DNA of 46,893 nucleotides from Phycisphaerae bacterium (GCA_028714855.1 JAQTLP010000012.1:1-46893), one strand, 5' to 3'. Counted from the stretch's first letter, positions 3,959 through 39,767 are shown. Notes: generated by a model not told the origin, from the letters alone. Numbers and translations: made by a program.

Positions 3959-4156
3959 TTAACTTGTTAATGGGTCTGGCTTAAAATCGTAAAACGCCCA
4001 AGGCGTTTTAAGACTAATTTCCACGTTTCGCTCAAAAATTGATTCTATTGTACCTTTTTCGTAATAACCGTGATGCTCTAAATAATCAACTGCTTGTTCA
4101 GGAGTAATTTCAAAAGGAATTTCACCTTCGTGGTTAAATGTTTTTGTGATTCTCAT
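3959..4156 (-). CDS. Hypothetical protein, 65 aa
   Basis: ORF; weak SD AAAGGCGG. Confidence 0.4.
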   Translation of the reverse strand: MRITKTFNHEGEIPFEITPEQAVDYLEHHGYYEKGTIESIFERNVEISLKTPWAFYDFKPDPLTS

Positions 4157-4289
4157 AGTTTGGCCGCCTTTCTACTTAGCCGCTATTAACTTTAAATATG
4201 TTTTACGTTTTAAATCCTTGTAGCCGACTCGAACGGCCACGCAGGCCGTGCCCTGCAAGGATAATAGCGGTCAAGCTATTTGAAGGTTG

Positions 4290-4679
4290 TTAGTTTTTTC
4301 TTAACAGTTTTCTGCCTCTTGTGCAAACCGGTAAACATTCACATTTATTGCAATTTGGTTTATCGCAGTTCCCGTATGTTTTTGACTCAAAATAAAAACC
4401 GCTTAATCGTATCGGAGCAAGTCTTTTGTCATTAAGTCTCCGAACGATAATCGTATGTATTCCGATACTATACGGCGAAACATTATCATTCAAAGGATAA
4501 GCCAAAACCTGCCATAATTCTTTTTTGCCGTGATAGTATTGGTTTTCTCTGTATCTGTTTGTATTCATAACAAGGTAGCCGATTGAACCAACAGGGGGAA
4601 GTTTTGAATGGTGTAAATTTGTTATTTGTGTTAGCATTGTTTGACCGCTACTTTCCGCCTGACCGCTATTAACTTTCAA
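4290..4679 (-). CDS. Hypothetical protein with a Cys-rich C-terminus (CDKPNCNKCECLPVC); probably the first gene of the leftward operon (alternative ATG at 4637)
   Basis: ORF; position adjacent to the divergent control region. Confidence 0.4.
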   Translation of the reverse strand: MKVNSGQAESSGQTMLTQITNLHHSKLPPVGSIGYLVMNTNRYRENQYYHGKKELWQVLAYPLNDNVSPYSIGIHTIIVRRLNDKRLAPIRLSGFYFESKTYGNCDKPNCNKCECLPVCTRGRKLLRKN

Positions 4680-5171
4680 AAGAGCATTTACTCTTTATGT
4701 ATAATATCGGTTATTCCGCGTGAAAAGTCAAGTACAAAGTCTAATAAAATAAAATAATTATTATTGCTAAGTGCTTGATAATAAAGGATTTAAAAAGGGG
4801 GTAAAAAATAGTTAGGTGGGGACATCATAATAAATAGATTGCAATTCAACTTTCCGGTTTTATCGGGAAATATCAAATTGTTTGATTTGTTATTTCGGGC
4901 TACGTTTACCCCTACCCAGCAAAGATAATCGCTCATATCGCATCGTGGAGCGTTTTTCTTAGATGTTAAGTGCTTGTAAATAAACGACTTAGGGGGTATG
5001 GTCTTTTTTGGGCTAAAAATGAGGGCAGGAAGAACGTAATATGCGGTTTTTAAGGAAGCAATAAAGGCATTATAATTGGCATCTTTAGACCCAAAAAACA
5101 TATCAAAGGATATGTCAAAACAGCCATATTACTCCTTGAATATAAATACCTGTGAATTAAGCAGTTACGTA

Positions 5172-5287
5172 AAATATAGCAAGATAGTGTTATTTTTTGT
5201 AATAACAGGGTTATTTTATGACTATTTTATGTTATTTTGGCTGTTTTCAAGCTAAAAACGCCATAAACAAATATTAGCAAGATAGTG
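5172..5287. promoter_or_regulatory. Two copies of an 18-20 nt box AAATAT(T)AGCAAGATAGTG (5172..5189 and 5267..5287) flanking and overlapping the promoter at 5291
   Basis: Direct repeat read by eye, ~95 bp apart. Confidence 0.5.
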
Positions 5288-5290
5288 CTA

Positions 5291-5318
5291 TTGACAAAAA
5301 AAGCCAAATTGATATAAT
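5291..5318 (+). promoter_or_regulatory. Near-consensus sigma70 promoter: TTGACA(5291-5296), 16 bp, TGaTATAAT (extended -10, 5313-5318), pointing at the late/structural operon
   Basis: Perfect -35 and -10 hexamers with a TG extension. Confidence 0.6.
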
Positions 5319-5475
5319 CTTCTTCAGCTTCTTCTTCCTGAAGGAACGTTATTCTTAACCCATAGACAAGGTTAGAGTTGTCGAAGGGTAAGGAGAAGTA
5401 GGAGTAGTTCTTCGGTAGAAGTAAGGTAAAGTAAAAATGGTGCAAAAAACAAGCAGAAAGACGCCAAAAATTAAA

Positions 5476-5540
5476 GACGTCAACAACTTGTCAACAAGTC
5501 AACCAAATGTCAACACCTGTTATCAATGTCAACCATAAAG
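5476..5540. repeat. Iteron-like array: six direct copies of GTCAAC(A/C) within ~65 bp, plus one inverted GTTGAC at 5585
   Basis: gtcaacaa / gtcaacaa / gtcaacca / gtcaacac / gtcaacca counted in the sequence. Confidence 0.6.
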
Positions 5541-5585
5541 ATAAAGAAGAAGAAAAGAAAAGTATAAAAGAAAAAGATACAAATG

Positions 5586-5613
5586 TTGACAATCCCATTG
5601 AAGGTAATATACT
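5586..5613 (+). promoter_or_regulatory. Second sigma70-like promoter: TTGACA(5586-5591), 16 bp, TATACT(5608-5613)
   Basis: Perfect -35; 5/6 match at -10. Confidence 0.45.
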
Positions 5614-5947
5614 AAAAACCATACCAAAGGCAAAATTATCAAATAAAGAATTCGAGCAACGAAGGCAGAGGAACATTGAAGTATTGAAAGTAAAGTAGTT
5701 TTCTAAAGAAGGACTTTTGCCGCGAATTAGTTAGGGCCTTCATAACTATTTTAGCGAATAGAGGTTAATACGGACAAGAAAGTCTCCAATTTTACAGTTG
5801 GGGACTTTTTTGCTTTACAATTATAAGCATTTCTAAATATTCTATAAGTAAATCTAATTTTTCTCTTGACACGCCGAATATTAGAGTTACACTTAACGTA
5901 AATGATGCCGAAAAGCAACAAAAGGTTGTTTAACAAACAAAAAACAA

Positions 5948-6223
5948 ATGTTTCAAAAAGGAAAATCAGGTAATATACACGGTCGTCCAAAAGGCAGCAG
6001 AGATTTTGGCACTGAGCTTGTAGCAGCTATTAAACGTGCCGAAAAACGCGATAAAGAGTCTTTGCTTGATTATGCCGTTCGGCGCGCGCGAGCGAGTGAT
6101 AAGGTGCTGTGCTCGTTATTGAGCAAGGTCGTTCCTGATTTGTCTATTAACGATATTCCTGCTTTGCGAGAATTTCTTGTAAACATAAGCGTTACAAAGA
6201 CTTATAAACAGAATGATAGTTGA
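5948..6223 (+). CDS. Putative terminase small subunit, 91 aa (basic, with GNIHGRPKGS motif), overlapping the large terminase start
   Basis: GRPKG-type motif common in small terminases / DNA-binding phage proteins; sits immediately upstream of terminase large; no clear SD. Confidence 0.45.
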   Translation: MFQKGKSGNIHGRPKGSRDFGTELVAAIKRAEKRDKESLLDYAVRRARASDKVLCSLLSKVVPDLSINDIPALREFLVNISVTKTYKQNDS

Positions 6224-7655
6224 TTTTAATCCAGTTTTGAGTATAAAGCAGACAGAGGCATTTGACGCCCTTGAGGACTTAGCGATTGATGAGGTGCTTT
6301 TTGGCGGTGCAAAATACGGAGGGAAAAGCTGGTTTTTGTGTGTTTGGGTTTTTTTAACTGCGTGCAGGTTTATCAGGGAACACAATATCCCACAGAGCGA
6401 CCACCCGCTCCCGATTGGCTTTATAGGTCGTAAAATTGCCAAGCATTTCAAAGACACGACATTAGAGACGTGGTTCAAGACTATTCCAGTTGACGGATAT
6501 GTTGTCAAAGACGACCCTGCTTCAATTATAATCGATAATCGGGTTAAGGTTGATACGGGTGGGTTCGATAATCGTGAAACGATTAAGAAGTTTAATTCTG
6601 CCGAATACGCTTTTTATGCGATTGACCAAGCAGAGGAAACGACTGAGGATGATTTAAGTTTATTAAGAGCGGCCACATTTGGCCGGTTGGTGGTAAATGG
6701 CAAGCCAATAGCCGGTAAAGCGTTATACACAGCCAATCCGGCTCAATGCTGGCTAAAAAAAGAATTCATTGATTCGGTTAAGCCAAATAAGCGGTTCATT
6801 TCTGCTCTGCCGAGCGATAATCCGTATTGTACGCAAAGGTATATTGACAATCTTAAAGATAGCTTTAAACATCGTCCGGAGCTATTACAGGCGTACTTAT
6901 ACGGTAACTGGTCTGCCATTGAGGGCGTTAATCAGGTAATCAAGAGTAATTGGGTGTCCGGCGCCGCTGTTCGGTTATGGCACAAGCCGAACATCGTCAA
7001 AAAGGTTATTGCGTGCGACCCTGCGAGATTTGGTGATGATGAGACTGTTATATATTATCTCGAAGATGGTGTTATCGTTGACGAATTGATTTACGGTATG
7101 AAGGACACCATACATACAGCCAATCAAATAGCGTGGCTAATGGACGCTAAGGGGTGCAAGACTGCCATTATTGACGTTATTGGTATTGGTGCTGGTATCG
7201 TGGACTGGCTGAATGAAAGAAACAACACGCCCGACAATGAACATCGGGAAGGCAAAGGTTGGACTATCATCGGGTTTAACAGTGCAGAAAAAGCCGTTGA
7301 CGAGAACAGGTTTTACAATAAGCGTGCTGAGGCGTGGGATTATGCGGCCAAACAATTTAGCGATGGTAAAGTCATATTACGGTCTGATGGTAAAAAAGAT
7401 ATTGTGTTAGAGAACCAATTATGCCTGCCTTGCTATGAGTTTAGAAATGGCCGTATGCTTATCGAGAACAAGGATGACATTAAAAAGCGTTTAAGTTCGA
7501 GTCCCGACAGGGCTGATGCTTACATAATGGGTATTTGGGCAAATGGTATGTTTACTATAAACGATGGTATTTCAGTTAATCACAGAATTGATTTGACCCC
7601 TTCTGCCTATCACGGCAACCCGTTAACACGGGGAATGAGAATAGGAGCGGCGTAA
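6213..7655 (+). CDS. terL: Terminase large subunit (ATPase + nuclease), 480 aa
   Basis: Walker A GGAKYGGKS near the N-terminus; IDQAEE Walker B-like motif; C-terminal ACDPARFGDDETVIYY nuclease-domain signature typical of headful terminases. Confidence 0.85.
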   Translation: MIVDFNPVLSIKQTEAFDALEDLAIDEVLFGGAKYGGKSWFLCVWVFLTACRFIREHNIPQSDHPLPIGFIGRKIAKHFKDTTLETWFKTIPVDGYVVKDDPASIIIDNRVKVDTGGFDNRETIKKFNSAEYAFYAIDQAEETTEDDLSLLRAATFGRLVVNGKPIAGKALYTANPAQCWLKKEFIDSVKPNKRFISALPSDNPYCTQRYIDNLKDSFKHRPELLQAYLYGNWSAIEGVNQVIKSNWVSGAAVRLWHKPNIVKKVIACDPARFGDDETVIYYLEDGVIVDELIYGMKDTIHTANQIAWLMDAKGCKTAIIDVIGIGAGIVDWLNERNNTPDNEHREGKGWTIIGFNSAEKAVDENRFYNKRAEAWDYAAKQFSDGKVILRSDGKKDIVLENQLCLPCYEFRNGRMLIENKDDIKKRLSSSPDRADAYIMGIWANGMFTINDGISVNHRIDLTPSAYHGNPLTRGMRIGAA

Positions 7656-24616: not shown

Positions 24617-27600
24617 ATGGGTTTATTTGACGATTTAGCCGGTTCTAATACTTCGGTTTTGGAAAAACCGCAGGGACAGTTTGTTGGTATGTTCGGCGAT
24701 TTAGAGGAACAGGCCGAAACGGAAATAGTGCCTAAGTCGTTTGAAATAAAACTGCCCGAATCGAACTGGACGCCGCAGCAGGTTGCCGAAAAAGCCAAAA
24801 AGATTTTTGGTGAATCTATACAGCTGGAAGCACCGATAGAATTAGTGGAATTGGCCGATAATAAATATGCCAGCGAGGGGTTTAATTTTTCCGACATTTT
24901 AAGCAGTGCGACAATGACTGCTTATGAAAAACCAACAACTGAAAAAGAACGGGTGCAATTTCATCTTGATTATATCAAGGGCATGAACGATTCTGAACGC
25001 TCTGAATTTATCAAGTGGACAAGACTCGGTAACGTATTCGGTGTTTTCCCTTATTTGAGCAGAAAAGGCGTTCTCAAAAAGATAGGCATAGAAGATGATG
25101 CAGGGGATATTCGCGCTGCAAGTGAAGCGCAGGACATTTATCTTTCACAGTTAAAATTATCCGACCCAGATAAGTGGCGGGGCATAATAGCAGACACCGG
25201 CAGGACTTTGCTTGAATTTGGCCTGATACCGGGCAAAGCCGAAACAATATCCGGAACGGCCTTGAAATTCGCCGAACAGTCTTTACTTCAACTGCCGTCA
25301 AGGGAAATGACGTGGGGGCAGTTAGCGGAACAAAAAGCTAAAGAGGCAGGCAAATCGGCGATAGTTGGCGCGGCCGTTGGTGCGGCGGGTAAATATATCA
25401 AAAATCCATTTTGGGGTTTGGCTGAAAAGGGTGTTGGTAAATATCTACCGGGGCGTATCCCTCTTGTTACTGGTGGCTTTATGGGCTTGACTGCCTTAGA
25501 AGGTGGTACGCGAGAGCAGATAATCGAATCTGGAATCACTATTCTTGGTTTTGAGGCATGGAATATGGCTACTAAGGGATTTTTCCCTGAAGCGGCACGA
25601 AAAGCTAAAGAATTTAATCCAGAACTTAATAAAGTAGCTGATACCGACTTAACAAAGGTTATAGAACAAACCGTAGCAGAAACTAAAGTTTGGGGTTCCG
25701 ATAATAAAGTCGTTACCCTTGATGAATATAATCAAATTAAGGCAAGACGCACCACACAACCCATAGAACCCGCTAAACCCCCTGCCACAGGGGTTATTTC
25801 ATCGCAGGAAGCAAAAATTCCTGCCGAACCTGCCGTAACTACCCCCGAAACGATTGTAGGGCAACCTGAAGTGAAGGGGCAGGGAGAAATAGTAAATATA
25901 CCAGAACCAACCCCCTTGACACAACCAGTTTTTGATACAAGTAAAGTACCTATTTCTGAAGTGTCTGTTGATAAATTAAAACTTTCAAAAGACATACCGA
26001 ACTTCAAAGAATCTGCAAGCTCTGTAACTGGCGAGGTGCTTGGTGGCGAATTGCAGGGTAAGTATGAACGATTAGGAACTGGCCCGATTGTTGTTTGGGA
26101 ACGAGCAAGTGGCGGTTTAGAGGTTATTACGGGTCGTCATAGATGGCGACACGCAATAAGAACAGGTGAAAAAACCATACAGGCACAGATTGTTAAGGAA
26201 GCAGATGGATTTACTAAAGAAATGGCCTTGACAATCGATGCCGAATCTAATATAAGAGAGGGGCAAGGTGGAATAAAAGATTATGCTCAATACTTCAAAA
26301 ACACCGCCATTACCGAACAAGAAGCAAGAGAGAGAGGATTATTATCGCGCACTAAGGGCGAGGTCGGCTTCCGAATTGGTAAAGGTGCGGTCGATGATGT
26401 CTACGCCGCCTTTATCGGCGGAAAACTCAACGAATCAAAAGCCGCAGCAATAGCCAGAGGCGCACCAAATAACGAATCGGCACAACTGGCAGCAATGTCA
26501 GAAGCCGAAAATATGTCGCCGGAAGAACTTGAGCAATTTGCAAAGATACTTGCCAGAACCACACCCTCAGACAAACTAAAATCCACGCAGGGCAATCTAT
26601 TTGGTTATGATGATACATCAATCCGTGAAGCCAGAGCGGTTGCCAGAGAAGTTGGCAAAGAAGTAAAAAATATTAAAGATAGAATATTGTCTGTTAGAGG
26701 CGCGTTAAGAAGGCCGGACACTGCCCGTGAAATGGGATTAGAATTTTCCGATGAAGAAACTATCAAGAAAGAAGTTTCACGTCTTGAACAACGATTAGAT
26801 GAATTAAAACGAACATCAACAACACCCGAATTGTGGAACGAGATGAGAAGACGGGCTGGATTAATTACTGAGGAAGTATCAGAAAAAACAAGACAAACAG
26901 ATTTGCTTGGCCGTCCAATATTAGAAGGTGGAGCAACCGGAAAACAGGAGGAATTTCTTGACAAAGAAGAATATAAATTGCCAGAACCAGACATTGAAGG
27001 GCAAGGACGTCTTTATGGTGGCAGGCAAGCGGGTTCAACCATAATATTCGACCCACAGGAATGGTCGGATATGGTTAAAATAGGGACATTCCATCTCGAA
27101 GCAGGCGCAAGAAAATTTGAAGATTGGTCAACTAAAATGGTGGAGGACTTGGGAAAATCCATCGAACTTAACTTGCCTGATATTTGGAATGATATAAATA
27201 AACCCAAAACCATACCCGAAATCAAAGGGGAAGTCGGCGTTCAATACCCACAGATTCAAGGTGCAGGAGAGCTTAAACAAAGAGGACTTTCAAAGAGTAC
27301 CGAAGAAACGGCAGTAGCCAAACGAATTGAGTTACAAGCTGAACGTTGGCCGGGGTATAGGGTTTTAGATACGGAAAAACAGGCAAAAAAAGTCGTGGAT
27401 TTGATGAACTACGATTTGAAACGTGCCAAACGAATAGCAATGGGCATAGAAGAACCGCGTATTTCTGATGGGGTTTATCCCGAAGATGTTTATGCCGGAA
27501 TAGTCGAAAGAGCCACTAACGAAGGTGATAGTGAAACATTACGAGACTTAGCATTGACCAGCAGATTAAATTCGGTAGCTACGGAAATTGGCAGGAGAAT

Positions 27601-27820
27601 ACAAGCACTCGATACCGGACTCGATAAATCTGAAAGTCCCGTAGCGGCAATAAAGGACATAGTAGTTACTAAAGAAGAATCATTCAAATTACGGACTGGT
27701 AAGGAGGCGAAAGTTGCCAAAAAAGAAGGTGTTGATGAAATCAAAAAATCAATAACAAAAGAAAGCAAGACCAGAACCGTTAAGACGTGGGAAGATTTTA
27801 TAATTAGTATTCAATGTTAA
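24617..27820 (+). CDS. Large internal virion / ejection protein (gp16-like), 1067 aa, with an embedded ParB/Srx-like nuclease domain
   Basis: EVITGRHRWRHAIRTGEKTIQAQIV matches ParB box II (GERRWRAA...IPAIV), around 26080..26290. Confidence 0.55.
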   Translation: MGLFDDLAGSNTSVLEKPQGQFVGMFGDLEEQAETEIVPKSFEIKLPESNWTPQQVAEKAKKIFGESIQLEAPIELVELADNKYASEGFNFSDILSSATMTAYEKPTTEKERVQFHLDYIKGMNDSERSEFIKWTRLGNVFGVFPYLSRKGVLKKIGIEDDAGDIRAASEAQDIYLSQLKLSDPDKWRGIIADTGRTLLEFGLIPGKAETISGTALKFAEQSLLQLPSREMTWGQLAEQKAKEAGKSAIVGAAVGAAGKYIKNPFWGLAEKGVGKYLPGRIPLVTGGFMGLTALEGGTREQIIESGITILGFEAWNMATKGFFPEAARKAKEFNPELNKVADTDLTKVIEQTVAETKVWGSDNKVVTLDEYNQIKARRTTQPIEPAKPPATGVISSQEAKIPAEPAVTTPETIVGQPEVKGQGEIVNIPEPTPLTQPVFDTSKVPISEVSVDKLKLSKDIPNFKESASSVTGEVLGGELQGKYERLGTGPIVVWERASGGLEVITGRHRWRHAIRTGEKTIQAQIVKEADGFTKEMALTIDAESNIREGQGGIKDYAQYFKNTAITEQEARERGLLSRTKGEVGFRIGKGAVDDVYAAFIGGKLNESKAAAIARGAPNNESAQLAAMSEAENMSPEELEQFAKILARTTPSDKLKSTQGNLFGYDDTSIREARAVAREVGKEVKNIKDRILSVRGALRRPDTAREMGLEFSDEETIKKEVSRLEQRLDELKRTSTTPELWNEMRRRAGLITEEVSEKTRQTDLLGRPILEGGATGKQEEFLDKEEYKLPEPDIEGQGRLYGGRQAGSTIIFDPQEWSDMVKIGTFHLEAGARKFEDWSTKMVEDLGKSIELNLPDIWNDINKPKTIPEIKGEVGVQYPQIQGAGELKQRGLSKSTEETAVAKRIELQAERWPGYRVLDTEKQAKKVVDLMNYDLKRAKRIAMGIEEPRISDGVYPEDVYAGIVERATNEGDSETLRDLALTSRLNSVATEIGRRIQALDTGLDKSESPVAAIKDIVVTKEESFKLRTGKEAKVAKKEGVDEIKKSITKESKTRTVKTWEDFIISIQC

Positions 27821-27827
27821 AGTAATT

Positions 27828-29570
27828 ATGTATTGTTTACCAAAATATTTAGCCGATAAATTTCTGGAAGCGTTAAAACGCGGGACTGTAACGCCGGACA
27901 AACTTACTGATATGACCTCTGCCGAAAGAAGGGCGTTTTTTACCGAAATGCTTGGCGAAGAACACGCCGTACAAGTCAATTCGCTGTTTGAGAGCAAGTT
28001 ATTATTAAAAGACCAGCAAAGAGGAATTATCACTTGGGCGAAACAGACTGCCGGAATAAGCAAGCAGGCGCAAAGGGACATTATTTCAAGAGTCGATAAA
28101 ATGACGGAAATTCTTAATCCCGCCACACAGGACGCTTTTCTTGAAGATATAGTAGCTCATAAATTAGATGTTACGGTAACAATGGAACAGGCCGCTAACA
28201 TTTCATCTCTTGGTAAAATAGCCCTCGACAAGAAAATTATTATGGAAGCGTCCGAAAGACGGCTGACCGGCCAGAGGCAGACACCGACCGAGAAAGAATA
28301 CGGTGATGCACGGGTAGCTTTTAGCAATTACATAAGCGACCTCAAAACAAAAGCAAAGCAAAAAAGTGTTTATGAATATTTGCGTATGCCCAGAACGGCA
28401 TTTTCAGAACTGGCGGGACTGGCAAAGGCGTCTAAAGCGTCTTTAGATAACAGTGCAATCCTACGGCAGGGTTTAAAGGTACTTTGGACGCACCCAACAA
28501 TATGGCTTAAAAACTCCGCCAACACTTTTGTGGATATTTGGAAAACGCTCGGCGGTGAAAATGTAATGGACGAAATCAACTCTGATATAGTATCGCGACC
28601 GACTTATGATAATATGATTAAAGATAAACTGGCCGTAGGCGTAATGGAAGAAGCATATCCCACGCACCTGCCCAGCAAAATTCCCGTTCTCGGCAAACTG
28701 TTCAAGGCGAGTGAAGCAGCGTATACGGGATTTATGTATAGAAACAGAGCAGATTTGTATGATTTATATACCGAGATTGCGATAAAATCCGGCTTGCCGA
28801 CAACGACCGATTTGGGTATTGGCAGACTTGTAAATTCCCTAACCAGCAGGGGCAATGTCGGCAGATTAGAACCGATAGCAAGCACTCTTAATAATGTTTT
28901 CTTTGCACCAAGAAACCTTAAAGCAAACTTCGATATTTTAATGGCACACACATTCGATAAAAATCTGAGTCCTTTTGTAAGGAAGCAAGCGGCCATAAAT
29001 CTGGTAAAAATAATAAGTGGAACGGCTGCTATTCTTGTTATTGCAAAAGCAATTGACCCTGACAGTGTAGAGGTTGACCCCCGCAGTGCAAACTTCGGAA
29101 AAATAAGAGTAGGTGATACGAGATTTGACGTTACCGGTGGAATGGCGGGAATAGTTACATTGGCTTCACGTTTAATAGTTACATTGGCTTCACGTTTAAT
29201 AACGATGAAAAGCAAAAGCAGTATTACAGGTAAAACGGTTGATTTATGGTCGCGCAAATACGGTGCGCAAACCGGCAAAGATGTTGTTTATGATTTTTTT
29301 GAGAATAAGTTTTCACCCGCAGCGCAATTAGCTAAGAATATTTTAGAGGGCAGTGATTATCGCGGCAATAAAATAACATTCACGGGAGAGCTTAATACTT
29401 TTATAACACCGCTGCCGGTTACTACTTATCAGGAATTGGCAAACAATCCGAACTCCGCCAATATAATTTTATCTATGATTTTTGAGGAATTGGGTGTCAG
29501 TACGAATACATATTCTAAAAAGAAAAAAGGCAGTAATGTTATTAAGCAACCGAAAACTAAATCGGATTAG
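27828..29570 (+). CDS. Virion-associated protein, 580 aa, containing an exact 24-bp in-frame tandem duplication (IVTLASRL x2)
   Basis: atagttacattggcttcacgttta occurs twice in tandem at 29151..29198. Confidence 0.45.
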   Translation: MYCLPKYLADKFLEALKRGTVTPDKLTDMTSAERRAFFTEMLGEEHAVQVNSLFESKLLLKDQQRGIITWAKQTAGISKQAQRDIISRVDKMTEILNPATQDAFLEDIVAHKLDVTVTMEQAANISSLGKIALDKKIIMEASERRLTGQRQTPTEKEYGDARVAFSNYISDLKTKAKQKSVYEYLRMPRTAFSELAGLAKASKASLDNSAILRQGLKVLWTHPTIWLKNSANTFVDIWKTLGGENVMDEINSDIVSRPTYDNMIKDKLAVGVMEEAYPTHLPSKIPVLGKLFKASEAAYTGFMYRNRADLYDLYTEIAIKSGLPTTTDLGIGRLVNSLTSRGNVGRLEPIASTLNNVFFAPRNLKANFDILMAHTFDKNLSPFVRKQAAINLVKIISGTAAILVIAKAIDPDSVEVDPRSANFGKIRVGDTRFDVTGGMAGIVTLASRLIVTLASRLITMKSKSSITGKTVDLWSRKYGAQTGKDVVYDFFENKFSPAAQLAKNILEGSDYRGNKITFTGELNTFITPLPVTTYQELANNPNSANIILSMIFEELGVSTNTYSKKKKGSNVIKQPKTKSD

Positions 29571-33032: not shown

Positions 33033-33070
33033 ACAGCCCAAGACTGAAAACGTCAAGGGCTGTTTTTATT
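33033..33070 (+). terminator. Intrinsic terminator at the point where the two arms converge: ACAGCCC-17 nt loop-GGGCTGT, then TTTTTATT
   Basis: 7-bp stem + T-run read directly. The T-run overlaps the stop of the minus-strand gene; there is an A-run on the other side. Confidence 0.5.
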
Positions 33071-33623
33071 GCAATACCTTTTCTGCTTCAAACAAGTTGT
33101 CAACATTTGGATAATCAGTTCTAACTATATCCGCACATTGAGCAAGAGTTTCTTTTCTGGCGTAGGCGGCGGCGGCGGCGTAGTCGGCGGCGTAGGCGGC
33201 GTAGTCGGCGGCGGCGGCGGCGGCGGCGGCGTAGGCGGCGGCATAGTCGGCGGCGTAGTCGGCGGCGTAGGCGGCGGTGTTGGCGGCGGCGGCGGCGGCG
33301 TAGGCGGCGTGCCTTACATCATCGAGAGTTACGCCATTTTCACCCCTCGCCCATTGCTCTGCCGTTTCAATAGCTTTTAGTGGTCGCAATTCACCTTTTT
33401 CTATATAAGGCAAAGCAAGTCTGGCACACTTGCAAGCCGTCAAAACCAACTGTTTTCGCTTATCACAGCCCGGTTCGCCGGATAGTTTACCAATTAGCCA
33501 GAGCATGTGGTCTCCTCTTTCACAGACCAACCACGCAGCTTGCATTGAACTAAACCTTTTCCCCCATTCAATAGCTTCTTGGCAAGCACCTAATTTTACA
33601 AGTTTATCAGTCCAGTGTTTCAT
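33066..33623 (-). CDS. Ala-rich heptad-repeat protein (185 aa from ATG 33623, RBS AAAGGAAA). It has an N-terminal Cys/Trp-containing domain followed by (AAYAADY)-type repeats.
   Basis: ...RHAAYAAAAAANTAAYAADYAADYAAAYAAAAAAAADYAAYAADYAAAAAYA...; the longer ORF reaches 33716. Confidence 0.6.
   Translation of the reverse strand: MKHWTDKLVKLGACQEAIEWGKRFSSMQAAWLVCERGDHMLWLIGKLSGEPGCDKRKQLVLTACKCARLALPYIEKGELRPLKAIETAEQWARGENGVTLDDVRHAAYAAAAAANTAAYAADYAADYAAAYAAAAAAAADYAAYAADYAAAAAYARKETLAQCADIVRTDYPNVDNLFEAEKVLQ
33170..33310. repeat. GCC/GGC-based microsatellite-like coding repeat ((GCC)n interspersed with TAC/GAC) encoding the AAYAADY array
   Basis: ggcggcggcggcggcgtaggcggcgtagtcggc... read directly. 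Confidence 0.85.
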
Positions 33624-33734
33624 TTTTTTTCCTTTCTTAAAATTGTTAATAATATCAGGGCGTTGCTTCGGCCTATGAGAAATTGGCATTAGCATATTTT
33701 TATTGGCAACCCACAACGCCCTGCGCTCATTTTG

Positions 33735-36544: not shown

Positions 36545-37291
36545 TTATTTAACGCCAAAAGAAAACTTGCCCTGACTACGCTCTTTGGCTAAGCGTTTGT
36601 CGCCAATCTCGCAATACTTTTCAGAAATATCAGCACAAATCCACCTTCGGCCTAATTGCTCGGCGGCAAGGGCGGTAGTGAAAGAACCCGCAAAGGGGTC
36701 GAAAATAAGGTCGTCAGGTTTTGAATGTATTTCAATAAGACGTTTCATCAATTCAAGGGGCTTTTGTGTGGGGTGTTCGTCAAATTGTGGTATGTCTTGA
36801 TTTATTCCCTCAATTACGTTTGAGCATTTTTTGCTTTCGTCATAAAAACTGTAACCATCTTTGCTTTTTGATAGAACAACAATATTTTCATAAGACGGCC
36901 TATATCGCCAACCCAAGCCGATAAATTTCTTCCAAACCAACGTCTGGATTAAGTTAAAATGTTTTATGGCCTCAATCGTGAAAATAGCAGTAACAGGAGT
37001 TTTTCCGCCGCCGCAGCAGCAGCAGCAGCAGCAAGCAATATCTGACAATACCCGCTTGATTTCCGGCAAAGTATCGGCCAATAACAAAAGCCAGTCATTA
37101 TAATCATCGTTTTGTAATCTCTCTTTCCGGTTCGTCCGGTTAGAACAGAAGTTTATCCCGTAAGGGGGGTCTGTTAATGTGAGGTCAATCGCCTTGTCGG
37201 GAATAAGGGACATCAAGTCAATGCAGTCGCAACACACCACGTTGCCAATGGCCTTTGTCCAATCACCTTGCAAATCGTCAATTCTTAACAT
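36545..37291 (-). CDS. Orphan DNA amino-methyltransferase, beta class (motif IV DPPY N-terminal, motif I FDPFAGSFTT C-terminal), with an internal poly-Cys (7xC + GGG) tract
   Basis: TLTDPPYGINF and LIFDPFAGSFTT read in the translation; no adjacent restriction enzyme; RBS GGAGAG. Confidence 0.75.
   Translation of the reverse strand: MLRIDDLQGDWTKAIGNVVCCDCIDLMSLIPDKAIDLTLTDPPYGINFCSNRTNRKERLQNDDYNDWLLLLADTLPEIKRVLSDIACCCCCCCGGGKTPVTAIFTIEAIKHFNLIQTLVWKKFIGLGWRYRPSYENIVVLSKSKDGYSFYDESKKCSNVIEGINQDIPQFDEHPTQKPLELMKRLIEIHSKPDDLIFDPFAGSFTTALAAEQLGRRWICADISEKYCEIGDKRLAKERSQGKFSFGVK
37005..37033. repeat. (GCA)7(CCG)3 on the + strand, equivalent to (TGC)7(GGC)3 in the coding strand of the methyltransferase
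   Basis: Trinucleotide repeat read directly. Confidence 0.9.
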
Positions 37292-37958: not shown

Positions 37959-37999
37959 TTAATACCTCTCGTAGTATTTCTCGAAATTGAGACACAGCA

Positions 38000-38026
38000 G
38001 GGCGGGTCGAGATGCCCCGCCTTTTC
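38000..38026 (+). terminator. GC hairpin GGCGGG-9 nt-CCCGCC followed by TTTT, in + orientation between two minus-strand genes (possible antisense or bidirectional terminator insulating the HNH gene)
   Basis: Read directly. Confidence 0.35.
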
Positions 38027-38055
38027 GGTAGCTAACCTATCTGTGTTAAAGTATA

Positions 38056-38550
38056 TCATATATTGAATTTTTCTGTAACACTTTTATCTAAAATTGTTTG
38101 TATCCCATTTTTAGTCAAAATACATATTTTATTAAGATACTTTTTTGACAATTTGACCTTTTTGGCGTTATTTTTGGAGTTAAAAACCATTGTTATTTTG
38201 ACCTCTGGCTGATACTTATTGAGTAATTTTAACTTCCGCCGTGTATCAGCTTCAAAAAGCCCTTTTCCTTCCCAGTATTCTAAGGTATCATTATTGTTGC
38301 GTATGTCAAAATCTACAAGCCAAGTATCATCGGGAAACTTAAACGTGGTTTGTTCATACCACCAATCTTTAATCTCGCCGGCTGTTTTCAAGAATTGGAG
38401 ATATTTAGCAATCCGCCAATCCAGTTTTGAACGAAAGTCATATTCTTTGCTGCCAATAGTATCGTGGATTCGCTGGTTATTGTATTCTTTAACCAGTGGC
38501 CCTTCACAAAAACCCAATTTTCTTGCCTCCTGTAGGGATAGTTTTGCCAT
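38056..38550 (-). CDS. DUF1064-family phage protein, 164 aa (predicted PD-(D/E)xK-like fold)
   Basis: SKEYDFRSKLDW...LKTAGEIKDWWYEQTTFKFPDD...DFDIRN...EYWEGKG...DTRRKLKLLNKYQPEVKITMV pattern; RBS AAGGAG. Confidence 0.5.
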   Translation of the reverse strand: MAKLSLQEARKLGFCEGPLVKEYNNQRIHDTIGSKEYDFRSKLDWRIAKYLQFLKTAGEIKDWWYEQTTFKFPDDTWLVDFDIRNNNDTLEYWEGKGLFEADTRRKLKLLNKYQPEVKITMVFNSKNNAKKVKLSKKYLNKICILTKNGIQTILDKSVTEKFNI

Positions 38551-38569
38551 ACGATTCCTTCTTTCTCCT

Positions 38570-39165
38570 TTTACTGATTCGCTACGCCTTCGCTTTGCTA
38601 TACCTCACGTTGCCATACGCTACCATACCTTTGCTCAACAATACATTGCCATACCGCACCCCGCCATAGCGTTGCGATACGTTACTATGCCTTCACATTG
38701 CCCGACTTCACCATGCCACTGCCTTACTTTGCCGAACGCTGCCGCGCCTTTGCAAAACAAAACTTTACATTACTTTACGTTGCCATTGCAATACTGTGCG
38801 CTACTTCGCCTGCGCCTTGTTATACAGCACCTTACGCTACCATACCTTAGCTAAGCTAAGCTAAACAAAGCATTGCCGCTGCGTTGCGATACGTTACTAC
38901 GCCTTCACATTGCCCAACTACGCCTTGCGCTACTTCGCCTTCGCTCAACAGTACATCACCATGCCTTTGCTATACTTTACGCGACGCTGCCTTTGCTCGA
39001 CAATACATCACGACACAACACAACGCCCTCGCGAAACCATACTCCACCTTACGCCACGCTGCCCTTGCAATACAATACCATGCTTAACCTTTACAACACA
39101 TTGCGTTACAATCTCCACTTTGCCTCTGCGATACTTCGCCTTGCAAAACTCTGCCTTTGCATCAC
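38570..39165. repeat. ~600-bp intergenic block that is strongly G-depleted on the + strand. It consists of degenerate nested repeats: the motif TTGCTCAACAATACAT occurs five or more times, a ~40-bp segment GCGTTGCGATACGTTACTAYGCCTTCACATTGCCC is duplicated 222 bp apart, and there is a (CTAAG)3-4 run.
   Basis: Read directly; the + strand ORFs over it are compositional artefacts. Confidence 0.8.
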
Positions 39166-39767
39166 AAAACCTCATATACAAAAGAACCCATTCCAGAATT
39201 TCGCCATTGCAGTAGACCTCTTAACGCACCATAGTCGAGCCACGGTTTCAGAAAATCTTCAAGTTTTTTATCGAGTAACATTATCTCTGCTTCAAAGGTC
39301 GTACCGGCAGGCAACATTTCGGAACGTGCCAGAGATATTCTTTCACCCCGCATCGTTTGTCCCCGCAAAGGTCTTTCACAAAACTCTATCTTACCGCCTT
39401 CAGGTATCGTTAAAAACATCTTTCGAGGTCTGACAAATAACATCATATCAATGGTTCGTTTATACAGATATTTCGTCAGGCCGATTTTCTTTAATTCCTC
39501 CTGTGTCATTTTGCCGGACATTATCAATGCCAAGCAGGAATCTTTGAAAAATCCTTTTAATTGGTAATCCCAAATAAACGGCCTTCCGTCCTCTCTGGGG
39601 AATATCGTGCTGGACTTTTCGAGGGCTTCATCTTCAGGCAACGCCTCGATTTCGTCCTGTGCCGGTACTTTGGCAGGATTTTTTGAGAGAATAAAGTCCG
39701 TTGCGGCGTCCTTATTTCCCGACAATGTTCCTAAAACCGGCTCTACAAATTTAATTCTTACTTTCAT
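39162..39767 (-). CDS. Hypothetical protein, 201 aa
   Basis: ORF. Confidence 0.5.
   Translation of the reverse strand: MKVRIKFVEPVLGTLSGNKDAATDFILSKNPAKVPAQDEIEALPEDEALEKSSTIFPREDGRPFIWDYQLKGFFKDSCLALIMSGKMTQEELKKIGLTKYLYKRTIDMMLFVRPRKMFLTIPEGGKIEFCERPLRGQTMRGERISLARSEMLPAGTTFEAEIMLLDKKLEDFLKPWLDYGALRGLLQWRNSGMGSFVYEVL

Follow-up and report, generated by a model that had tools for sequence, protein, structure and literature searches.

A predicted VIPR guide-RNA array beside a minimal Cas7-like RAMP gene in a 46,893-bp contig binned to Phycisphaerae

The window, meaning the whole stretch of DNA analysed here, is a complete contig of 46,893 bp binned to a Phycisphaerae MAG. Its long run of plus-strand ORFs at 6.2–32.7 kb is taken to be a putative structural arm. 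The feature of interest is a G-poor block that occupies the whole intergenic stretch 38551–39161, between two minus-strand ORFs, 39162–39767 on its upstream side and 38056–38550 on its downstream side; a reading made from the sequence alone had placed such a block here, and that placement was borne out. The upstream gene (39162–39767, minus strand), here termed vipr-like, encodes a 201-aa minimal RAMP protein, Cas7/Csm3-like, in which a thumb hairpin is combined with a glycine-rich loop at the C-terminus (GLLQWRNSGMGSF). The downstream gene (38056–38550, minus strand) encodes a 164-aa nuclease of the PD-(D/E)XK type resembling T7 endonuclease I (Pfam PF05367, E = 4.6e-7; phrog_945). It had been called DUF1064 in the sequence-only reading, a name that its Pfam match, Phage_endo_I (PF05367), replaces. 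An int-alpA RNA motif (Rfam RF02996) was also noted at 37979–38047 on the minus strand, with the endonuclease I-like gene on one side and the HNH gene on the other; it is full length, and its 37.9 bits exceed the gathering score of 35.8.

Base counts on the plus strand of the block are C 211, T 172, A 141 and G 87, i.e., 35% C and 14% G. GC skew in 400-bp windows is about −0.37 to −0.44, the strongest in the arm. The reported strand asymmetry is therefore real, although with G at 14% the plus strand is not "almost entirely C/T/A" as had been written. The block is richer in GC than its flanks, at 0.45–0.50 compared with ∼0.40 nearby. Each of the three minus-strand frames holds 11–13 stops of two or three types, which agrees with the earlier view that no minus-strand protein is possible and rules out a hidden or recoded ORF; stop-codon recoding is not the explanation, because stops of mixed types occur in all the minus-strand frames. 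The long plus-strand ORFs mentioned earlier are there as well, with lengths of 211, 186 and 101 aa (38219–38854, 38873–39433 and 38910–39215), and 3-nt periodicity in the block is at background (Fourier power 1.67 at period 3.0). No Rfam family, hammerhead included, matched within the block, where a tRNA search was also empty, and its minus strand gave no promoter or terminator matches. The sense RNA of the block folds no better than shuffled sequences (z-score 0.09).

Recurring motifs do occur in the block, although not in the copy numbers first given. TTGCTCAACAATACAT, described as present five or more times, has 3 copies when up to 3 mismatches are allowed, and CGCTACTTCGCCTTCGC likewise has 3 copies. 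A duplicated segment was correctly seen but misdimensioned, as ∼40 bp repeated 222 bp apart; it is a 48-nt stretch (repeat family D3) on the minus strand, whose copies at 38669–38716, spanning two modules of the array described below, and at 38881–38928 are 90% identical and 212 bp apart. Where three to four CTAAG copies had been listed, the tandem run found is AGCTA × 3.2 at 38849–38864 in mid-array, reading GCTTA GCTTA GCTAAG in the sense direction as three near-identical units, and this core puts stops into all six frames. The longest repeat families of the block are degenerate, at 60–78% identity.

The sequence-only reading had suggested a periodicity analysis without naming any period. 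We found a single sharp Fourier line at 5.16 nt with a power of 26.05, where 200 shuffles averaged 2.5 and none exceeded 4.2. Autocorrelation of the block peaks at 5, 10, 15/16, 21, 26, 31 and 36 nt. Unit boundaries were assigned by dynamic programming on the sense (minus) strand together with a position weight matrix. Periodicity, parse and matrix define an array at 38578–39170 on the minus strand, of ∼115 units and ∼590 nt. The parse consists of 101 pentamers of the form G-Y-(A/G)-N-N and 19 hexamers of the form G-(C/T)-R-A-A-G, roughly GC(A/G)AAG, each followed by G. Of the 101 pentamers, 97 have G at position 1 and 97 have C or T at position 2; at position 3, 60 have A and 24 have G. Position 4 is A, T or G, and position 5 is uniform. 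The composition of positions 3 and 4 is biased, being A-rich and C-poor. The hexamers divide the array into ∼20 modules, mostly of 26, 31 or 36 nt (5n + 1), with runs of 4–8 units between hexamers. This grammar accounts for both the non-integer period and the scarcity of G on the plus strand.

The first units of the array overlap the final codons and the stop codon of the RAMP gene, and 27 nt separate its end from the start codon of the next gene. Its 3′ end is marked by a non-periodic leader (38551–38577, minus strand) carrying the ribosome-binding site of the next gene (AAAGGAGAAAGAAGG). Because it starts in the RAMP gene and reaches the next ribosome-binding site with no internal promoter or terminator match, the simplest reading of the array is that it belongs to the operon transcript. 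Elsewhere in the window a period of ∼5 nt is found only in a coding 15-bp tandem repeat at 105–381. We rejected a kinship between that repeat and the block: it encodes a pentapeptide-repeat protein, (ADLRS)n, and the period of 5 that the two have in common is a coincidence because the repeat codes for pentapeptides.

Searches of Pfam, PHROG and PADLOC placed the 201-aa protein in no family. Modelled by AlphaFold with 35 homologues (pLDDT 87, pTM 0.79), it is predicted to have a ferredoxin-like core, a long beta-hairpin (residues 128–152) and the C-terminal glycine-rich loop. Foldseek comparison with the PDB gave 126 hits at E ≤ 1e-3, the best of them to Csm3 and type VII Cas7, with E values down to 1.9e-7. 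A sequence profile search of the PDB returned a Cas7 protein of 200 aa (E = 0.0025), and the closest structure in BFVD is an annotated RAMP superfamily protein of a gut siphovirus.

We detected 2457 relatives of the 201-aa protein, ranging from Planctomycetota phages to prophages of gut Firmicutes and Actinobacteria. Hundreds of IMG/VR viral contigs carry them; these were found by searching with an alignment, where single-protein pattern scans had failed. A DNA-level search of GenBank phages found no close relatives. Among 87 metagenomic and viral loci (from IMG/VR, ENA, NCBI and Logan, the window included), 79 have an array adjoining the gene, its start usually within ∼50 nt of the stop codon. 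The comparison with homologous phages that the sequence-only reading had proposed showed the same type of array beside the gene. In genomes from GTDB, the array lies downstream or just upstream of the gene at ∼36 of 51 loci (32–68% protein identity), which come from Planctomycetota, Clostridia, Eggerthellaceae, Prevotella and others. Array periods across relatives are 5.04–5.24 nt (5.06–5.22 nt at the metagenomic and viral loci), and the linkage holds down to ∼32% protein identity. In 64 distinct arrays taken together, 3014 pentamers and 575 hexamers average 5.160 nt per unit; G stands at 96% of first positions, module lengths peak at 31, 26 and 36 nt, and the hexamers are GCAAAG, GCAATG, GCAACG and GCTAAG. 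Apparent "long modules" of 9–16 units in gut-phage arrays were discarded as parser artefacts arising from back-to-back hexamers. In every relative, the strand asymmetry of the array is oriented with the RAMP gene.

Comparison of close relatives shows how the arrays change. Whole modules are swapped with the frame retained, indels are of 5n + 1 nt, and in near-identical modules the substitutions fall at positions 2–5 and almost never at the G. This is a guide-like turnover, in which modules change, the frame is kept and substitutions spare the G. The relative at locus L003 (88% identical) has an array of ∼605 nt after the gene, and that at L005 (68% identical) has one of ∼320 nt; the genes downstream of the array differ in both, and the endonuclease I-like gene is not consistently paired with the module. 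The sequence-only reading had looked to neighbouring wHTH and DUF1064 proteins as binding partners of the block. The conserved partner is instead the upstream 201-aa RAMP, and the downstream genes vary.

Some loci depart from the simple order of gene followed by array. In four of them (L023, L045, L073 and L079) an identical 205-aa HNH/AP2-like ORF (5632–6249) separates the vipr homologue from the array, which is shifted ∼640 nt downstream; the arrangement suggests that a homing endonuclease has inserted into the module. At L008 (59% identity) arrays lie on either side of the vipr gene, at 4104–4925 and 5626–6207. The upstream one contains a 26-nt module (GCAAAG GCAAA GCAGA GCAAC GCAAT) in three tandem copies, and we conclude from these copies that arrays grow by module duplication. 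The array is directly upstream of the vipr homologue at L139, L142, L144, L146–L148, L155, L157 and L168, all on MAG contigs of Clostridia or Coriobacteriales.

A system with these components, termed Viral Interference Programmable Repeat (VIPR), is described in the available text of two 2026 bioRxiv preprints from one group (10.64898/2026.04.26.720920 and 10.64898/2026.04.26.720927). As set out in that text, Vipr is a phage-encoded minimal RAMP of ∼20 kDa, and its guide RNAs (vrRNAs) are built of YNNGG pentanucleotide repeats, with NNNGG, YNNNG and NNNNG variants, at least 4 units and seven VIPR types (10.64898/2026.04.26.720920). The same text states that dsDNA is targeted through the variable NN with a one-nucleotide skip, that natural targets lie in competing phages, that silencing of transcription through dsDNA recognition was demonstrated for type II, and that some Vipr genes stand alone, without vap (10.64898/2026.04.26.720920). 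Its methods and the legends of figures S17 and S18 include among the array forms "staggered arrays" of non-type-II systems, in which vrRNAs without tails overlap by 1 nt; going by the available text, small-RNA sequencing confirmed other architectures but not these (10.64898/2026.04.26.720920). Cryo-EM of the SUSP1 and P. fulva systems places one Vipr protomer on each repeat, in a right-handed helix with six subunits per turn, or five when bound to DNA (10.64898/2026.04.26.720927). In the Vipr of Escherichia phage SUSP1, H17 and D177 read G1, whereas R138 of the thumb and W178 of the G-loop hold G2, the latter by stacking; the Y3 pocket includes R179 (10.64898/2026.04.26.720927). We located the SUSP1 locus directly; agp039 (195 aa) and agp038 are flanked by gaps (27499–28031 and 29061–29511) that contain GGTNN repeats with hairpin tails.

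The RAMP fold match of our protein exceeds the threshold that the authors of the VIPR preprint themselves used. Its sequence similarity to the SUSP1 Vipr family is weak and confined to the C-terminus; hhalign gave E = 3.7e-4 with a probability of only 36% over 47 C-terminal columns, covering the C-terminal strand, the helix and the G-loop. Within that same weak 47-column match the invariant Q187-W188-R189 align with D177-W178-R179 of SUSP1. An R-P motif in the thumb, outside the hhalign alignment, is found in both families. Judged from this alignment, the residues that hold G2 and Y3 appear to be kept (W188 and R189), and the residue that reads G1 appears to be changed from D to Q. That substitution is in keeping with a repeat that lacks the first G, xGYNN here, in which only the second G and the pyrimidine survive.

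The locus resembles type II VIPR (SUSP1 and the P. fulva prophage) in having a stand-alone phage RAMP of ∼200 aa with a thumb and G-loop, in what appears to be a conserved W-R pair in that loop, and in flanking non-coding pentanucleotide repeats on the strand of the gene, with an invariant G, then a pyrimidine, then variable bases; both also occur without cas genes or a CRISPR array. Our array places 101 G-Y-N-N-N pentamers, equivalent to YNNNG, right after the stop codon. A viral context, which rests mainly on the IMG/VR contigs that carry relatives, is joined by a lack of Cas hits among the 20 neighbouring proteins scanned and of any CRISPR-like repeat in tandem-repeat and repeat scans of the window. 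Other features differ from type II. The repeat is xGYNN (YNNNG/NNNNG type) rather than GGYNN, and the Asp that reads G1 appears to be replaced by Gln. Where type II has separate transcripts of ∼100 nt, each with 9–16 units and a hairpin/pseudoknot tail of ∼40 nt, here there is one array of ∼590 nt with GCAANG hexamers and runs of 4–8 units, continuing without a structured 3′ tail to the ribosome-binding site of the next gene. Across relatives there is no conserved accessory (vap) neighbour: flanking genes differ, and the next ORF upstream belongs to a different, unrelated cluster from one clade to another. The lack of a tail and of a conserved vap gene excludes type II and leaves VIPR as a whole open, because tail-less staggered arrays and stand-alone Vipr genes are described in the available text. 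To those staggered arrays, as far as that text describes them, ours is similar in being contiguous and tail-less, in a relaxed consensus, and in a 1-nt offset or overlap resembling its 5n + 1 modules.

Taken together, these observations make it very likely that the block is a VIPR guide-RNA (vrRNA) array and that the 201-aa gene upstream encodes its Vipr, a minimal Cas7-like RAMP. Points that weigh against this are the weak match to SUSP1 Vipr, the lack of a structured tail and of a conserved vap gene, the failure to find a target with any of the decoding rules described below, and the biased composition of positions 3 and 4, which by structural analogy would be the NN. The locus is probably a member of a non-type-II branch of VIPR that is experimentally uncharacterised. 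We infer, by matching to the text and legends of the preprint and not to its figures, that the hexamer-punctuated array may correspond to the "staggered array" named there.

On this VIPR interpretation, the leftward operon transcript would run from the vipr gene directly into the array, as the lack of a terminator or promoter match between them suggests. If the SUSP1 and P. fulva cryo-EM structures are a guide, Vipr protomers would each occupy one 5-nt unit of the G-rich sense RNA, and the thumb and glycine-rich loop would hold the invariant G and the next pyrimidine, leaving the variable bases exposed. The GCAANG hexamer, by adding one nucleotide every 4–6 units, would shift the register and yield ∼20 short guides of 26–36 nt. 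From the +1 shift we infer either that each filament ends there or that the site is marked for processing. By extension from type II, the filaments would recognise dsDNA of competing phages or mobile elements through a gapped code and silence its transcription. The commonest module, of 31 nt, holds six units, as many as there are subunits per turn in the SUSP1 binary filament; this is a bare correlation.

By analogy with the published systems, the guide bases should lie at unit positions 3–4. We searched for targets with the position sets (4,5), (3,4), (2,3), (3,4,5), (2,3,4) and (2,3,4,5), with skips of 0–3, and with or without the extra hexamer base. In the window and related loci (0.63–0.86 Mb, arrays masked) there were only trivial self-matches, with no excess over unit-shuffled controls. 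Set (3,4) with a skip of 1 matched 69 modules compared with 46–60 in shuffles, an excess that vanished for patterns of at least 12 nt. An exact scan of IMG/VR with a 16-base single-module pattern gave 31 hits, about the chance level, and exact scans there with three patterns of 21–22 bases gave zero. Locus L096 had two extra module hits, which were not significant after 31 tests. Guides of 4–7 units, with 8–14 informative bases, are too short for meaningful exact-pattern searching. A tentative elaboration, which we consider possible but on balance doubtful, is that this Vipr clade uses a grammar of its own: ∼20 tail-less mini-guides per transcript, each of 4–7 pentamers plus GCAANG, with the G1 pocket lost. 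One invariant base would then be left per unit, the GCAANG hexamer could be a ruler or a processing signal, and the decoding rule could differ from the published NNx code. A different rule would explain the absence of targets under that code.

The block had been offered in the sequence-only reading as a replication origin or iteron field, a structured leader or non-coding RNA, or a protein-binding array. Its judgement of a non-coding, strand-specific, functional element was right in outline. The non-coding RNA proposal survives broadly, without the structure, and protein binding survives as a prediction at the level of RNA, without the centromere or partition role. As for an element acting as DNA, whether an iteron origin, a centromere-like site or a helix-phased array of protein-binding sites, the unit spacing is half a helical turn (2 × 5.16 = 10.3 bp), and neighbours of recombination or replication type occur, ERF and SSB in L003 and a resolvase-like nuclease downstream of our block. 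Against this, cumulative GC skew, which that reading had thought might inflect at the block, turns instead at ∼4 kb and ∼33 kb, where gene orientation switches; the block is GC-richer than its flanks and has no AT-rich unwinding region, and in place of the direct repeats of 17–22 bp and the adjacent initiator gene of an iteron origin it has degenerate repeat families and a RAMP neighbour. Asymmetry that in every relative tracks the orientation of the RAMP gene, a sole conserved partner of RNA-binding type, and turnover around one invariant base per 5 bp, unlike iterons, also argue against it, and we regard a DNA-level element as extremely unlikely. Loading of Rho by the C-rich plus strand, on antisense transcripts entering the early operon, has in its favour a classic rut-like composition (35% C, 14% G) over 600 nt. 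Rho prefers the YC dinucleotide. The periodic plus-strand dinucleotide is RC, however, and Rho would leave the 5.16-nt period, the GCAANG punctuation and the RAMP linkage unexplained; we give it hardly any credence. Equally hard to credit is a functionless, decaying pentanucleotide microsatellite or a real plus-strand coding region, despite the perfect AGCTA × 3 core and the long plus-strand ORFs. A decaying repeat would lose all five positions alike, whereas here G is 96% conserved and the others vary; a coding region should show the 3-nt periodicity that is missing here, and 5n + 1 indels would break any frame; and neither reading fits an array kept beside the gene from 88% down to ∼32% protein identity.

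Other systems in which a protein meets a periodic RNA share some of these traits. TRAP binds arrays of (G/U)AG triplets in the trp leader, 11 triplets on a closed ring, and CsrB, of the CsrB/RsmZ sponge RNAs, shows GGA in hairpin loops. Like our array, these have short conserved RNA motifs, 2–3 variable nucleotides between them and an oligomeric protein; unlike it, they have no RAMP and no run of ∼115 units. On the strength of the RAMP linkage we dropped TRAP-like binding, together with a Rho rut, primase sites, a Chi array and nucleosome-like phasing. A type III toxin–antitoxin (ToxI-like repeats of ∼36 nt) was rejected because near-identical tandem units are lacking and PADLOC found no ToxN or AbiQ among the neighbours. 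Closest in structure are the Cas7 filaments of Class 1 CRISPR systems (Csm3/Cmr4, type IV Csf2 and type VII Cas7), which provide the best structural matches to the 201-aa protein and in which helical RAMP subunits on single-stranded guide RNA use a thumb to flip bases periodically. Their register is 6 nt, with unique spacers and repeats of 25–40 nt, whereas here the unit is 5 nt with 6-nt punctuation. They also need Cas5, Cas6, Cas10 or Cas11 partners and an adaptation module; none was found here, nor were Cas8 or 25–40-bp repeats at this locus. The protein might instead coat the periodic RNA as an anti-CRISPR decoy, forming aberrant filaments that sequester Cas subunits of a host type III, I or IV system. 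Its nearest solved structures are indeed type III and type VII Cas7 subunits, its variable bases have no target that we could find, and RNA-based anti-CRISPRs that mimic repeats are known in phages (PMC10651486). We nonetheless think a decoy very unlikely. The 5-nt unit does not suit the 6-nt register of class 1 complexes, module turnover and hypervariable positions suit guides and not a mimic of one constant host repeat, the spread of the family over many phyla speaks against mimicry of the CRISPR of one host, and the published VIPR mechanism already covers the anatomy of the array.

VIPR is a recent addition to the classes of RNA-guided DNA recognition. It has been proposed to be older than CRISPR, and its mechanism has been studied only for type II. 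This locus points to a large and phylogenetically broad branch with long, continuous, hexamer-punctuated arrays and a relaxed xGYNN repeat. Such a branch would serve as a natural experiment on how Vipr filaments are measured, on array processing in the absence of tails and ribozymes, and on the minimum length of a gapped guide. It also suggests a rule for annotation, a periodicity of 5.1–5.2 nt beside a RAMP gene of ∼200 aa. Without it such regions are miscalled as ORFs, because gene callers put spurious genes on the G-poor strand.

Long ORFs arise on the antisense strand of the array, and in some relatives on the sense strand, and gene callers annotate some of them as proteins. A 64-aa "gene" is called inside the array of L005 (6632–6826), and L003 likewise has antisense ORFs. 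ORF calls inside arrays are a systematic annotation artefact for the vipr-like family.

Several other features of the window were noted. The divergent intergenic region between the leftward and rightward arms (5102–5947, especially 5479–5579) is AT-rich, with a GC content of ∼0.34, and carries direct repeats of GTCAACA type and ATAAAG repeats; cumulative GC skew turns nearby. It is a more plausible site for operators or an origin than the G-poor block. At the left end, the tandem repeat at 105–381 has 18 copies of 15 bp with 92% matches and encodes the pentapeptide-repeat protein (…ADLRSADLRSANLRYADLSY…) on the minus strand in ORF 1–480, a phage-carried protein of the Qnr/MfpA-like DNA-mimic fold. 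This ORF runs off the start of the window; the contig is probably circular, so that the ORF would finish at the window end. The gene for an N6/N4 DNA methyltransferase (36545–37291, minus strand) contains a perfect (GCA)7 at 37013–37033, an unusual insertion that encodes seven cysteines followed by GGG (…DIACCCCCCCGGGK…). Finally, a GGC-rich repeat, GGCGGCGGC in 16 copies at 33165–33310, lies in a 216-aa minus-strand ORF (33066–33716) and encodes a low-complexity sequence that is Ala/Pro-rich or Gly-rich depending on the frame.
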